Origin: an uncultured cyanobacterium | Lineage (GTDB): Bacteria > Cyanobacteriota > Cyanobacteriia > Cyanobacteriales > Microcystaceae | NCBI GenBank assembly: GCA_963807635.1 | Contig: CAWEDJ010000105.1 | Span: forward strand, 1 to 64,000 | Reading direction: 5' to 3' | DNA length: 64,000 nt | Part shown: positions 58,104 through 63,368 of the stretch, piece after piece | How positions within the stretch are numbered: the stretch's first letter is position 1 | Layout of the letters: each line of letters starts with the position of its first letter | The notes under the pieces: model-generated | Told to the model about the DNA's origin: nothing | The model's database searches: none | What the model saw: the letters and a program-made list of their open reading frames with translations, nothing else | Position numbers and translations under genes: made by a program

Positions 58104-58208
58104 TTACTCATTGTTATAGGGTTTTGAATTTTCTGCTAATGTAGCCTGAATTTTGGGTAGGAGGTCTTCGCAGTCTTGAAGGAGGGGAATTTCCAGTTGT
58201 TGAGTGAG
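58104..58208 (-). repeat. Decayed copy 3 of NLR 3' end
   Basis: Translates LTQQLEIPLLQDCEDLLPKIQ..stop. Confidence 0.7.
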
Positions 58209-58232
58209 AATGGGAGCTACTGACAAATGGCT

Positions 58233-58456: not shown

Positions 58457-58696
58457 CTACGATGCCATAAGGGGAATTTGAAAGTGACTTGCGGTCGTCA
58501 AGGTGATACAGGGATGTTCAGCTTTTGTTTGATCAAGTTCCAACAGGATCGGAATCAAATCTTTAGCGATTTCGATCGCCGCGTCTATGGTATCGGCTTC
58601 GGCAACGAGTCCTTGAATGTCGGGACTGGTCGCTACAAAGTAATTTTGATTGTTTTCTTGGCAGTATTCGATATTGAGGATAATTTGGTTTTGCAT
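58457..58696 (-). CDS. HicB-like antitoxin (DUF1902-like)
   Basis: FVATSPDIQGLVAEADT motif; directly upstream of hicA. Confidence 0.78.
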   Translation of the reverse strand: MQNQIILNIEYCQENNQNYFVATSPDIQGLVAEADTIDAAIEIAKDLIPILLELDQTKAEHPCITLTTASHFQIPLMAS

Positions 58697-58743
58697 ATTG
58701 ATCAATATTTTAAAATGGATAGAAAAAGTCAATTTTTTTGATA

Positions 58744-58849
58744 CTAGCTATTGTCCCCTAAGTTTTCCTGAATTTTTGCTAGGAGTTCTTCGCAGTCTTT
58801 GATTAAAGGAATACCTATTTCTTGGAAGAAGGTGAGGTCAGCTTGGCAA
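58744..58849 (-). repeat. Decayed copy 2 of NLR 3' end
   Basis: Translates CQADLTFFQEIGIPLIKDCEELLAKIQENLGDNS-stop. Confidence 0.85.
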
Positions 58850-59288: not shown

Positions 59289-59437
59289 TTATTGATTATC
59301 CCCTAAGTTTTCCTGAATGTTTGCTAGAAGTTCTTCGCAGTCTTTGACTAAAGGAATGCCAAGTTCTTGGGAGAGGGCGATCGCGTTTTGGCAATGCCTG
59401 AGAGCAAGTTGGAGTTGATTGGTTTGATGGCGATCGC
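59289..59437 (-). repeat. Decayed copy 1 of NLR 3' end, starting at a HIP1 site
   Basis: Translates HQTNQLQLALRHCQNAIALSQELGIPLVKDCEELLANIQENLGDNQ-stop. Confidence 0.9.
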
Positions 59438-60386: not shown

Positions 60387-60554
60387 TTAAAAAATTTCCA
60401 ATAAAATGGGAATCAAATCTTTGACGATTTCTATTACCGCGTCTATCGTATCGGCTTCGGCAACAAGTCCTTGAATGTCGGGACTGGTCGCTACAAAATA
60501 ATTTTGATTGTTTTCTTGGCAGTATTCGATATTGAGGATAATTTGATTTTGCAT
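60387..60554 (-). pseudogene. Truncated second copy of the HicB-like gene
   Basis: 55 aa nearly identical to the N-terminal part of 58457-58696, including upstream spacer. Confidence 0.75.
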
Positions 60555-60599
60555 ATTGATTAATATTTTAAAATGGATAGAAAAGGTAATTTTTTGATA

Positions 60600-62951
60600 C
60601 TAATCATTGTCCTCTAAGTTTTTCTGAATTTTTGCTAGGAGTTCTTCGCAGTCTTTAACTAAAGGAATACCAAGTTCTTGGGAGAGGGTGAGGGCGTTTT
60701 GGCAATGGGTGAGGGCGGGTTGGGGTTGATTGGTTTGATGGGCGATTTCCGCAAGAGCTTTTAAACTATGGGCGATTAAATATTTAAAGTTAATCTCTTG
60801 GGAAATAACTAAGGATTCTTGAATTTTGGCTTCTGCTTCGCTGTAATTTTCAAGTTCGATCAATATCTCCCCTATATTGTGTAGAGCAATTGCCTCCCCT
60901 CGCCGCAAGTTAATTTTTTTACTAATGTCAAGAGATTTCTGGTTAGAGTCGATCGCCTCTGTATATCGCTTCAAGGAATGATAACAACGTCCTAAAGCCC
61001 ATAGAGAATTTGCCTCCCCTTCCTGATGGCCGATTTTTTTACTAATGTTGAGAGATTGCTGGTTAGAGTTGATCGCCTCTGTATATCGCTTCAAGGAATG
61101 ATAACAAAGTGCTAAATGCAATAGAGCGAGTGCCTCCCCTTCCTGATCGCCGATTTTTTTACTAATGTTGAGAGATTGCTGGTTAGATTCGATCGCCTCT
61201 GTATATTGCCCTAAGAAATAATAATAAAGTCCTAAATTCCCTAGAGCAAATGCTACTCTTTTTAGATCGCCCATTTTTTCGCTGATTTCAAGAAATTCCT
61301 TGTACTTGGATCTCGCTTCTGTATACTGCCCTAAGAAAGAATAATAAAGTCCTAAATTCATTAGACAACCTGCTACCACTTCCTGATAGTCCATTTTTTT
61401 ACTAATGTCGAGAGATTGCTGGGTAGAGTAGATCGCGTCTTTATACTTCCCCAAAAGATTATAACAATTGCCTAAATTCACTAGACAACCTGCCACTCCT
61501 TTCTGATCGTCCATTTTTTCGCTAATGCCGAGAGATTCCTTGTACTTGGCGATCGCTTTTTCATACTCCCCCAAGGAACAATAACAATTGCCCAGACGGT
61601 TGAACGACTTCCTATGACAATCTTGTTCCCGTTGACTCCCTGCGATCACCTGCTCGTATAATTGCGCTCTCTGACGATAAAGCCCTTGTAATTCCAAAAA
61701 TTGATCAACCGATTTATTTTTTCCTTCTCCCCCTCGCTCCTCATTCAAAATATCAAAAGCTAACTGCCATTCTCCCAATTCCCCTGCATGGTAAAACCCC
61801 TCTAAATACACCGTCAAATCCGCCAACGATTCCCAGGGAGGCGCGGGTAAATGGGCCAAAAAATAAGCCAACGCGGACTGATGCGCCGATCGCAATAGCT
61901 CAGAATCCGTTTGCTGTTGCACCACCATCGAAATTAAAGGCAAAAACTGAAACCGTCGCCGTTTTCCCTCTTTGGGTTCGGGGGGAAACTCCTGCAACAA
62001 CGACAAACGGGCCAAATCCCGTAAATCTTTCTCTGTTACCCCAGCCGTTAACCCCTGAGCTAACCCCAGATCAAAAATCCCTCGCAATACCGATAACCGC
62101 TTTAAAATATCCCCTAACCGTGCCGATAATCGCGACAAACTGGCCGCTACCACTTCCCTGACACAGGTTTCCGTATCACGGTGATAACCCTCCACCGTAA
62201 ACAAATCTAAGCCCAAGTTTTCCGCCTCTGTCACACAAACCTCTTCCCCCAACTCCTCCCGCATCCAACTCGATACCAGTTGCATCAAGAGGGGATGCCG
62301 CCCCATCTGGTTCACAAATTGGGCTAATTCTTTCTTCGTTCCCGTTAAACCATAGTCTTCCGTCACCAAACGCATCGCATCGGCTTCTGCTAACCCCTTT
62401 AAGGGCAACCAATAACAACGCGATCGCAAATTGGGGGCCAACGTTGGCTGTTCCCGACTGGTGAGCAACAGCTTACTGTTACCCCCGTTCCCTAGCCATT
62501 GGCTCAAAAATTGACCATAAACCGACTTCCCTTCTGCTGGTATTACCGTTTCCATATTGTCCAACACCAACAAACAAGGCTCGGCGATTAACCCTGCGAT
62601 TATCTGCCCAATTAACGTCTCCTCGTCCCATTTTTCATCATAAGCTTGTCCTAACTGCTCCAATAACCATCGCCCAAATTGCGCCAAGGGGTAAGGCTGA
62701 ATAAAATTCACCCACAACACCCGCCAATCAGGGGTTAACTGCTCTTTGAACTTCACCGCTAAAGCCGATTTCCCATAGCCTCCTGCGGCGGTCATCCCGA
62801 TTAAGCGTACTTTGTCATTGCTTAGGGCGGTTTGTAGTTCATTTATTTCATCCTGTCGTCCCTGCCATTCATCTACAGGTGGAGGTGTGGTATTCAGGGT
62901 TGCTGATTGCGTTGGGGCTAACTTTGTCTGTTTTCCATCAGACGAATCCAG
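60600..62951 (-). CDS. NB-ARC/STAND NTPase with TPR repeats (bacterial NLR); start unresolved
   Basis: Open from 62951: EWQGRQDE, GGYGKS, LLVLDN, TSR, HPL, then 40-aa TPRs. Confidence 0.88.
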   Translation of the reverse strand: MDSSDGKQTKLAPTQSATLNTTPPPVDEWQGRQDEINELQTALSNDKVRLIGMTAAGGYGKSALAVKFKEQLTPDWRVLWVNFIQPYPLAQFGRWLLEQLGQAYDEKWDEETLIGQIIAGLIAEPCLLVLDNMETVIPAEGKSVYGQFLSQWLGNGGNSKLLLTSREQPTLAPNLRSRCYWLPLKGLAEADAMRLVTEDYGLTGTKKELAQFVNQMGRHPLLMQLVSSWMREELGEEVCVTEAENLGLDLFTVEGYHRDTETCVREVVAASLSRLSARLGDILKRLSVLRGIFDLGLAQGLTAGVTEKDLRDLARLSLLQEFPPEPKEGKRRRFQFLPLISMVVQQQTDSELLRSAHQSALAYFLAHLPAPPWESLADLTVYLEGFYHAGELGEWQLAFDILNEERGGEGKNKSVDQFLELQGLYRQRAQLYEQVIAGSQREQDCHRKSFNRLGNCYCSLGEYEKAIAKYKESLGISEKMDDQKGVAGCLVNLGNCYNLLGKYKDAIYSTQQSLDISKKMDYQEVVAGCLMNLGLYYSFLGQYTEARSKYKEFLEISEKMGDLKRVAFALGNLGLYYYFLGQYTEAIESNQQSLNISKKIGDQEGEALALLHLALCYHSLKRYTEAINSNQQSLNISKKIGHQEGEANSLWALGRCYHSLKRYTEAIDSNQKSLDISKKINLRRGEAIALHNIGEILIELENYSEAEAKIQESLVISQEINFKYLIAHSLKALAEIAHQTNQPQPALTHCQNALTLSQELGIPLVKDCEELLAKIQKNLEDND
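60890..61600 (-). repeat. 120-bp tandem TPR-coding repeats (about 6 units)
   Basis: Sequence lines 120 bp apart are near-identical. Confidence 0.9.
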
Positions 62952-63368
62952 TCAAAAAGTTACAGGCCCATTGAAAGTATTTCCCTGAACAACATTCTTG
63001 ATTTGCTCGGCTAACTTCTGAGAATTAATAACGGTTGTCTGTTGCGTCTGAGATTTAATTGAATTCACAAGGTCTTTTAGTAAAGGTTCCGTTTCTACCA
63101 TTACGACTAATTCCTGCATCCTTTGAGCTACTTCAGGATTAGCCTTTGCGGCTGCTTCCGTTTCTAATACCGCTTTCCCATAATTCAAGGGCTGTTCAGG
63201 AGCTTTTTCAATCGCTGTGACCGTATCGGGTGATTCGTTTCTTAAGGAATTCAAAAAATCACCTGTTTGTTGCCAAAGAGTTTCAGCTACTTTTTCACCC
63301 GTTTTTTCAAGGGCTTTAGTTGCTACTACTGAACCAATGGCGATCGCGGCGGTTGTGAAGGGTTCCAT
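62952..63368 (-). CDS. Bell-like helical effector with C-terminal amyloid-like motif
   Basis: N-terminal hydrophobic helix MEPFTTAAIAIGSVVATKALEK; ends IKNVVQGNTFNGPVTF; adjacent to NLR. Confidence 0.7.
   Translation of the reverse strand: MEPFTTAAIAIGSVVATKALEKTGEKVAETLWQQTGDFLNSLRNESPDTVTAIEKAPEQPLNYGKAVLETEAAAKANPEVAQRMQELVVMVETEPLLKDLVNSIKSQTQQTTVINSQKLAEQIKNVVQGNTFNGPVTF

Follow-up and report, generated by a model that had tools for sequence, protein, structure and literature searches.

Conserved in-frame UGA-C and RNA hairpin between a small effector-like protein and an NLR-type sensor in cyanobacteria: a candidate for programmed stop-codon readthrough

The question raised by this locus was why a small effector-like protein and a large NLR-type sensor are encoded in one and the same frame with a single stop codon between them. 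The locus lies on the minus strand of a 64,000-nucleotide stretch from an uncultured cyanobacterium of the Microcystaceae (contig CAWEDJ010000105.1, assembly GCA_963807635.1; the whole stretch is called the window hereafter). An open reading frame (ORF) of 138 aa, referred to as ORF1, ended there with TGA followed by C, and its frame continued beyond the stop into a protein with a P-loop NTPase and TPR repeats. The initial annotation of this DNA had proposed that leaky termination gives abundant free effector together with a rare effector-motif-NLR fusion, so that both products carry a matched motif. Comparison of related loci supported this proposal with a conserved TGA-C, a covarying hairpin and two clean classes of layout, and programmed readthrough of the UGA with these two products is considered here the probable explanation.

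Translation of the window confirmed that ORF1 ends with GNTFNGPVTF-TGA and that its frame stays open for 783 codons past the TGA, beginning with LDSSDGKQTKLAPTQSATLNTTPPPVDEWQGRQDEINELQTALSNDKVRLIGMTAAGGYGKS..., until the TAG at 60602-60600 (Table 1). According to the ORF list of the window, the earliest ATG, GTG or TTG after the TGA was the ATG at 62795, which is located within the strand leading into the P-loop, and the 52 codons without a start that had been described in front of this ATG were found in the same list. The downstream part had been described as NB-ARC plus TPR. The TPR assignment stood, with TPR families far above the Pfam cut-off (TPR_12, 1.4e-51), while NB-ARC remained below it in the window (17.4 bits, cut-off 23.5), as did AAA_16 (21.8 bits) and AAA_22; overall, the downstream part is probably an NTPase of the STAND type followed by TPRs. 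No amyloid-type motif was found in the window from the TGA up to the NTPase domain, in agreement with the earlier description of an NLR without a motif of its own.

Table 1. Features of the effector-NLR junction and its surroundings in the window
Feature	Position	Strand	Basis or remark
ORF1, small effector-like protein, 138 aa, tail end GNTFNGPVTF	62955..63368	minus	ORF and translation
Stop TGA of the candidate recoding site (62954-62952) and next base C (62951)	62951..62954	minus	Sequence
8-nt spacer CTGGATTC from stop to hairpin	62944..62951	minus	No length variation in alignments
Conserved mRNA hairpin	62926..62943	minus	5' arm GUCUG (62943-62939), loop AUGGAAAA (62938-62931), 3' arm CAGAC (62930-62926)
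A-rich tract and C-run (AAAGUUAGCCCCAACG...), tentative 3' arm of a pseudoknot with the loop	62905..62925	minus	Conserved; weak in the window copy (UGG/CCA at most)
Linker, 52 codons without ATG/GTG/TTG and without amyloid-type motif, reaching into the NTPase start (WQGRQDE...VRLIG)	62796..62951	minus	
STAND/NB-ARC-like NTPase (P-loop GMTAAGGYGKS), then TPR repeats	60603..62795	minus	Pfam
TAG stop closing the long frame	60600..60602	minus	Sequence

Loss of one T from the T5 run before the TGA led to TAG 13 codons on, and gain of one T led to TGA 4 codons past a new TTG. The TGA is therefore not accounted for by an error of one base in the homopolymer, as had been argued initially. Slippage on the T-run was also considered and rejected, because the run is not conserved among relatives. 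Positions 62952-62954 were covered without a listed difference by contigs from two lake-water metagenome runs and by one metatranscriptome contig; the covering contigs belong to relatives and inform on the presence of the stop, not on expression or RNA ends. The TGA, for which an independent check had been advised, was thus kept in metagenome contigs, which speaks against an error of assembly, and it was kept in the assemblies of six other genomes as well. Against RNA editing, the single RNA-library contig over the site keeps the TGA, a weak point since such libraries can contain DNA. For background, the stop use of the own genome (G000) was counted in 1592 ATG-started ORFs of at least 250 aa, which gave TAA 918, TAG 355 and TGA 319, with TGA-C in only 53 of the 1592.

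The own genome and 40 relatives were searched with a junction query of 406 aa that consisted of the effector, an X at the stop and the first part of the NTPase. Matches spanning the junction were found at 8 places in 7 of the 41 genomes, with identities of 100, 91, 86, 88, 55, 53, 41 and 32%, and each of them showed one in-frame TGA. In one relative (G004) the NLR was 88% identical but an unrelated small helical protein was present in front of it, and homology started at the stop. In a genome of another genus (G008, 76%) the orthologue had its own ATG and no upstream effector within 1.4 kb, and an N/Q/G-rich segment took the place of the post-stop segment. A paralogue on contig C55 of the own genome has an effector ending with ...KLAEKIGVVNQGTIIDQTNTINLS and an NLR with its own ATG and PLAEKIGVLNQAPVYGQTNNITING near the N-terminus. 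This paralogue was tried as a case of one frame across a single TAG and was rejected, as several stops between the genes make it an ordinary two-gene pair.

A wider survey, unselected for the stop, used an alignment of seven effectors as query (six from readthrough-type loci and one from a two-gene locus) and one genome per species, and included Nostoc, Microcystis, Tolypothrix, Calothrix, Fischerella, Moorena, Okeania, Hormoscilla and other genera. A total of 538 pattern matches were obtained, 385 were confirmed by tblastn, and the best 80 of the 385 were kept. The effector frame of each locus was walked to its stop, and the loci were sorted by regular expression and by eye and then checked with the covariance model of the junction RNA (R1). 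Readthrough-type loci made up 42 of the 80. All 42 used TGA and all 42 matched R1, and the in-frame continuation was at least 212 aa or ran off the locus end in 37 and was 1-138 aa in five. Their downstream P-loop protein was always in frame 0, with no gap and without its own start. The other 38 loci used TAA (27), TAG (5) and TGA (6), none of them matched R1, and apart from one locus (L098), whose TGA is located within the effector domain, the in-frame continuation was 70 aa or less. A P-loop protein with its own start codon within 600 nt was present in 27 of these 38, in frames 0, 1 and 2 in 7, 7 and 13 cases and after gaps of 17-544 nt. A private nonsense mutation, named at the outset as a refuting outcome, was not borne out, since 42 of the 80 loci share the TGA and frame 0; all three frames occurred in the two-gene loci.

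The motif on the NLR side showed the complementary distribution. In the two-gene loci the tail motif of the effector was found by eye to be copied near the N-terminus of the NLR (for example, effector KLADKIGQVVMPGGTGNIENMSF with NLR KFADKIGAFAAPGAQVNIGTQII, and effector NLEKLADKIGQVVMPGGTGNIENMSF with NLR MPEDSGKFADKIGAFAAPGAQVNIGTQIIEGQKQLTPTKSIPYRGSVHFVGRE). One NLR family, …KLTPTKSIPYRGSVHFVGRE, was found in both layouts, and its readthrough-type loci read ...KLADEIKNVFQGNTFNAPVTFN-TGA-LKSSDGERTKLTPTKSIPYRGSVHFVGRE. In this layout the effector with its motif, the stop and a short conserved segment stand where the NLR would otherwise have a start and motif of its own. Readthrough is supported because the TGA with hairpin and in-frame NLR goes without an NLR motif, and the ordinary stop goes with an own start and motif.

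In the aligned junctions TGA was present in 52 of 52 and TGA-C in 48 of 52, compared to the 53 of 1592 long ORFs in the own genome. A structural scan over all collected loci asked for TGA, a 5-bp stem after 8 nt, and an ORF of 90 codons or more on either side (40 or more were accepted downstream if the frame ran off the locus). It produced 58 distinct junctions, in which the fourth base was C in 54, A in 2 and G in 2. Sequences within these sets are related, and the counts are not independent events. Overall, collection of homologous loci, which had been suggested initially, showed that different genera and unrelated types of effector share a conserved in-frame TGA-C.

The junction RNA was aligned from 6 nt before the stop to 57 nt after it (46 distinct sequences, MAFFT). 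RNAalifold produced one hairpin, with a 5-bp stem 8 nt past the stop and a loop of usually 8 nt. Pairing in the stem was present in 98.8% of cells in 50 distinct model-fitted rows and in 98.2% in the unfitted MAFFT alignment of 46, and it fell to 12-38% when the partner was slid by 1-3 columns (50 rows). Compensatory changes were found in three of the five pairs (CG 24/UA 24/UG 2; CG 26/UG 12/UA 11; GC 45/CG 3). The observed covariation score was matched by 0 of 500 column shuffles, a figure that is not a probability given the kinship of the sequences. The G-U wobbles of the stem lie on the sense strand, and changes in the stem swap residues (Ser/Pro with Thr/Ala, Gln/Arg) yet keep the pairing. 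At one locus (L103) a 9-nt loop shifts the codon phase of the motif, and the frame from TGA to NLR is nevertheless kept. These three observations together argue for selection on the RNA in sense orientation. A scan of 62700-63100 against Rfam with E up to 10 returned chance matches only (small nucleolar RNA and microRNA models, 13-16 bits).

A putative second helix was seen between the loop (...GGGA) and a C-run (UCCC) about 9 nt past the stem, which would form an H-type pseudoknot. It was paired in 77% and had one compensatory pair type (GC 28, AU 3). Complementarity between the loop and the downstream segment was also found with letters that differ by locus (AGGA/UCCU, GGAGU/ACUCC and UGGGAA/UUCCCG), and a permutation of self against non-self pairs gave p ~0.01 with Watson-Crick pairs only and 0.064 with G-U included. 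A crude test for the pseudoknot was negative, with a mean longest helix of 4.16 compared to 3.56 in shuffles but 4.83 for a segment further downstream.

In the product of ORF1, a hydrophobic helix at the N-terminus (MEPFTTAAIAIGSVVATKALEKTGEK) is followed by ~110 aa of helical domain and by a disordered tail at the C-terminus that bears the motif KLAEQIKNVVQGNTFNGPVTF. AlphaFold2 with a 44-sequence alignment predicted a helical bundle of seven helices (mean predicted local distance difference test score, pLDDT, of 68.6; predicted template modelling score of 0.59), helical over residues 3-108 and with a short helix at 116-128, while residues 127-138 had a pLDDT of less than 50. The classes of tail motif were conserved within effector groups. 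Searches of ORF1 against Pfam, PADLOC and NCBIfam matched no family, and fold searches remained at the noise level for helical bundles (best E of 0.54 with Foldseek against PDB; best Z of 5.7 with VIA-align over 48,161 chains). Among longer relatives of the effector, two natural fusions were found. A stop-less Moorena protein of 1463 aa (P0002) has the effector domain joined directly to the NLR type of the Moorena readthrough loci, without tail motif, stop and hairpin segment, and an Okeania protein of 634 aa carries HEAT repeats. The existence of the stop-less Moorena protein shows that an effector-NLR fusion is a viable architecture.

Under programmed readthrough, ribosomes would translate ORF1, mostly terminate at UGA-C and release the free 138-aa protein, with a helical, probably membrane-attacking domain and a C-terminal amyloid-type motif. 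Occasionally a near-cognate tRNA would instead read the UGA, and the inserted residue would by analogy most likely come from tRNA-Trp. Such reading would be promoted by the weak UGA-C(UN) context and by the hairpin 8 nt past the stop, which may be stem 1 of a pseudoknot, and translation would proceed into the NTPase-TPR sensor to give the effector-motif-NLR fusion. The fusion would bear the sole copy of the motif where the NLRs of two-gene pairs bear their own N-terminal copy. Oligomerisation of the sensor would bring the motifs together, and these would seed the fold by which free effector is converted through amyloid templating, with a presumed role in cell death or defence. The arrangement would fix the ratio of the two products and guarantee a matched motif, and effector modules would be swappable at the standard junction.

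Several observations weigh against this mechanism. To our knowledge, structure-stimulated readthrough is undescribed for cellular bacterial genes, which gives the reading a low prior. The stem is small (5 bp), and the loop of the window copy deviates from the common ...GGGAA. The window junction folded alone had a minimum free energy of -8.8 kcal/mol with a different pairing and a z of 0.03 compared to shuffles; the window hairpin is thus unremarkable thermodynamically and the case for the hairpin is a comparative one. The second helix of the window copy has 3 bp at best, the window copy of the hairpin may be a weak one, and the pseudoknot, with its marginal support, is a tentative lead. At one locus (L151) the hairpin is present without a stop, inside an ordinary NLR of a two-gene pair after its own ATG and motif, which shows that the hairpin is not exclusive to the stop. 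In addition, the RNA model includes the TGA columns and so favours TGA-bearing matches. Finally, the downstream frames looked decayed in the five short cases among the 42 readthrough-type loci (L049, L059, L061, L066 and L083; 1-138 aa) and likewise at L156, L148 and L142.

The main rival is termination-reinitiation or another non-canonical initiation, in which the NLR would start at a non-AUG codon just past the TGA, the hairpin would position the ribosome and no fusion would be made. A CTG is located right after the stop in the window and in 20 of the 58 junctions, the fixed distance from stop to hairpin suits a coupling device, and in-frame adjacency is automatic if the start abuts the stop. 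However, the post-stop codon was CTA in 24 of the 58 junctions, and elsewhere CCA (5), CTC (3), GTG (2) and ATC, CTT, CCG and AAG (1 each). The alternation of CTA, CTG, CTC and CTT, a synonymous Leu pattern, indicates that the codon is not a start, and the independent start at the CTG at 62951, against which the readthrough proposal had originally been set, was not borne out by a conserved CTG. The junction consensus CUA CAG UCG CCC GAA CGG GAA CGG GCA AAG UUA AAU CCC also has no in-frame NUG or AUN. Furthermore, an NLR started in this way would have no signalling motif, whereas the separately started relatives checked by eye all have one, and the frame at L103 was kept despite a loop that is 1 nt longer. 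Coupled initiation is therefore considered unlikely, though it survives better than the other alternatives.

The linker was read as coding sequence. In 37 of 43 junctions no ATG, GTG or TTG was present from the stop to the FVGR-type NB-ARC N-terminal motif. In a Nostoc-type group, codons 15-33 past the stop had 9, 7 and 15 variable sites at the three codon positions and 9 synonymous-only columns. In the window and three orthologues, codons 15-52 had 7, 1 and 12 variable sites, with 9 synonymous-only columns, 8 with an amino-acid change and 20 invariant. Third-position excess and synonymous-only codon columns were seen in three groups, and by these substitution patterns the stretch past the RNA motif evolves as coding sequence. 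In addition, intact NLR frames of 560-1230 aa without an own start were kept across genera.

These results bear on a second alternative, in which the stop is tight, the downstream frame is unexpressed from this message, and the junction is a DNA or RNA module boundary or an mRNA stability element. Such a boundary would fit the exact break of strain homology at the junction in G004, with its unrelated effector and 88%-identical NLR, the use of one junction by many effector types and the decay of several loci downstream. It does not fit the start-less NLR frames that were kept across genera or a linker that evolves as coding sequence, the sense-strand G-U wobbles point to RNA and not DNA pairing, and random stop choice would not give TGA in 52 of 52. 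A tight stop is considered improbable, more so than coupled initiation.

A third alternative is recoding of the UGA by a special tRNA for selenocysteine or another residue, with the hairpin as an element similar to the selenocysteine insertion sequence (SECIS). The use of UGA only, with a hairpin a few nt downstream, is the layout of a bacterial SECIS, and selenocysteine insertion in bacteria likewise has an in-frame UGA closely before a conserved hairpin within the coding sequence. The loop and stem of the junction nevertheless differ from SECIS in size. No SelB over the cut-off and no tRNA-Sec over the gathering score was found in four cassette-bearing genomes, G000 (93.7% complete) and G014, G017 and G047 (99-100%), and the controls of both searches scored as expected. 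ARAGORN found no suppressor or Sec tRNA in G000, and one RNA-library contig junction (depth 3) had TAG for TGA. Recoding of this kind is considered very improbable. A private nonsense mutation or sequencing error in a once-fused effector-NLR gene, which uninterrupted fusions might suggest, is less credible still and for practical purposes refuted by conservation, as the position of the stop was identical in all 52 aligned junctions, which come from many genera, and the stop was kept in independent metagenome contigs. In the natural fusion, moreover, the whole motif-stop-hairpin segment is missing, and no sense codon stands in place of the stop.

Some further observations concerned tRNAs and variant stops. 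The 41 tRNA genes found by ARAGORN in G000 included neither tRNA-Trp nor tRNA-Cys with introns allowed; both are probably unassembled in this draft, which is 93.7% complete. A tRNA-Arg(UCU) was found ~120 nt upstream of a readthrough-type locus in G017 (L024, 1531-1603, G017:C1) and probably marks an island insertion site. AGA is near-cognate to UGA; this tRNA was considered as a suppressor and rejected, being a tRNA-Arg(UCU). The RNA-library contig with TAG for TGA (X18 record 11, 3x depth, at 62901-62951) matched the hairpin region and had an unrelated effector tail, and is a possible UAG variant of the cassette. At L098 (Okeania sp. SIO2C9) an in-frame TGA-G was located inside the effector domain, at the Leu of QPLDYG, and the domain was open beyond it; this stop can be read as a simple nonsense mutation or as a further leaky stop. 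Finally, an unrelated NACHT-type gene (L029, G027:C47, ~2015-2020) had a single in-frame TGA-G right before the P-loop (...ISLISI-TGA-GMSGIGKT), with 169 upstream codons that form an N-terminal domain and without a hairpin of the junction type.

The covariance model of the junction was run on the own genome, 101 relatives and 151 genomes across the phylum. Three junctions were found in the own genome, located in the window and on contigs C69 and C42. The 101 relatives had 26 matches in 18 genomes, and in 25 of the 26 the TGA was in place and the frame was open downstream, with 116-170 codons open upstream of the TGA. The phylum sample had matches in 9 of 151 genomes (8 of 80 genera), with an in-frame TGA in 11 of 11 new matches, and 0 matches were found over 50 genomes of the largest sampled family. 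The effectors in front of the cassette were unrelated small helical proteins. The partners behind it were, by Pfam, NB-ARC+TPR, NB-ARC+APAF1_C, NACHT, NACHT+HEAT+NCC-H, a membrane PsbP-like protein and a weak CHAT+TPR, and related partners at other loci reached 65 and 79 bits for NB-ARC. On balance, we lean towards a portable cassette of UGA-C, 8-nt spacer and hairpin or pseudoknot that makes an executioner and any sensor behind it into one two-product unit.

The other two junctions of the own genome were found behind different effectors. The TGA-hairpin junction on C69 (C69:12487-12552, L127) had a different small helical protein in front and an NB-ARC-type partner, and at that on C42 (C42:31193-31254, L003/L128) a third kind of effector was followed by a conserved extension of 97 aa that matches no known family and was also found in G063. 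On C42 the extension is followed by a TPR gene in a different frame. In Tolypothrix, Aulosira and Nostoc (L050, L052 and L058) the cassette led to a protein of 212-220 aa that combines a single transmembrane helix with a PsbP-like domain, and in the readthrough product of these loci the effector would be anchored to a module of the membrane or periplasm.

In the window, the 3' end of the NLR was itself repeated. The last 90-140 nt, which encode ...IGIPLVKDCEELLAKIQKNLEDND, were present in four repeats of 67-87% identity (58128-58217, 58750-58839, 59295-59384 and 60606-60695), and 58535-58737 was also similar to 60393-60595. Each repeat was followed by small toxin-antitoxin-like genes (HicB-like, HicA-like and RelE-like), and the HicB-like gene behind the NLR was itself duplicated with 91% identity. 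The repeats look like a cassette array that shares the NLR 3' end as a boundary.

Among known systems, Bell and BASS1-10 were defined as two-gene pairs, and Bell homologues also form all-in-one NLRs (10.1101/2020.01.06.895854); in the accessible part of that text the terms 'stop codon', 'in-frame', 'pseudogene' and 'readthrough' had 0 occurrences. Bab/Agp of E. coli is an amyloid signalling system of two adjacent genes in phage defence (10.1101/2024.11.07.622273). The present loci share with Bell/BASS a small, helical protein (~100 aa) whose C-terminus carries a short N/Q/G-rich motif and which is encoded beside an NB-ARC/TPR or NACHT protein, and the occurrence in multicellular or colonial cyanobacteria. 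Close relatives of the window effector are also two-gene pairs with the motif on both partners. The readthrough-type loci differ in having one copy of the motif, no NLR start codon and one frame across TGA and hairpin. By its resemblance to Bell in size, helicity, tail motif and neighbourhood, the window effector is a candidate Bell-like protein. With all-in-one NLRs the readthrough product would share the architecture of an N-terminal effector domain, of which P0002 is a natural stop-less example; all-in-one NLRs, in contrast, yield just one product, and the domains of P0002 are joined without an amyloid-type tail.

For the readthrough itself, a parallel is phage Qbeta, whose A1 protein, a needed minor protein, is an extension of the coat protein made by low-frequency UGA readthrough on the bacterial ribosome. 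We know of no conserved stimulatory structure in Qbeta A1, which differs from the present loci in being a phage gene and in having no modular cassette common to many genes. The spacer of murine leukaemia virus (MLV) Gag-Pol is 8 nt. MLV Gag-Pol (UAG with a pseudoknot; PMC5009743, PMC4178896) is similar to the present loci in its abundant short product and rare extended fusion in one frame, and in a leaky stop, short spacer and structured RNA by which recoding sets the product ratio. The present case differs in its bacterial chromosome, UGA-C instead of UAG-G, a 5-bp stem, a pseudoknot that is putative, and release factor 2 (RF2) instead of eukaryotic release factor 1. In a review of recoding, UGA is described as the leakiest stop, C at +4 and UGA-CUA as promoting readthrough, and 3' structures as stimulating it in viral and eukaryotic mRNAs (PMC7026636). 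The junction contexts, UGA-C and in 24 of 58 UGA-CUA, fit these rules, which may not hold for RF2 in cyanobacteria. No literature linking readthrough with bacterial NLR, STAND, Bell or effector-associated domain systems was found, in a search outside which most subscription journals and bioRxiv supplements lay.

If the reading is true, these loci would be the first case in cellular bacterial genes of a conserved programmed readthrough of a stop codon with the help of an RNA structure, and a new class of bacterial chromosomal readthrough with a compact, defined signal that can be moved into reporters. It would also explain the start-less or truncated look of many cyanobacterial NLR-like genes in annotations; in the window, a gene-caller start at 62795 would cut into the P-loop strand. 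The device would resemble that of retroviral Gag and Gag-Pol in setting a ratio, with the amyloid nucleator on the NLR side supplied from the motif of the effector itself. For amyloid signalling, it would add a third coupling of sensor and executioner to the two-gene pairs and the all-in-one fusions, one in which motif match and stoichiometry are both set, and it would explain how effectors are freely swapped at a standard junction.

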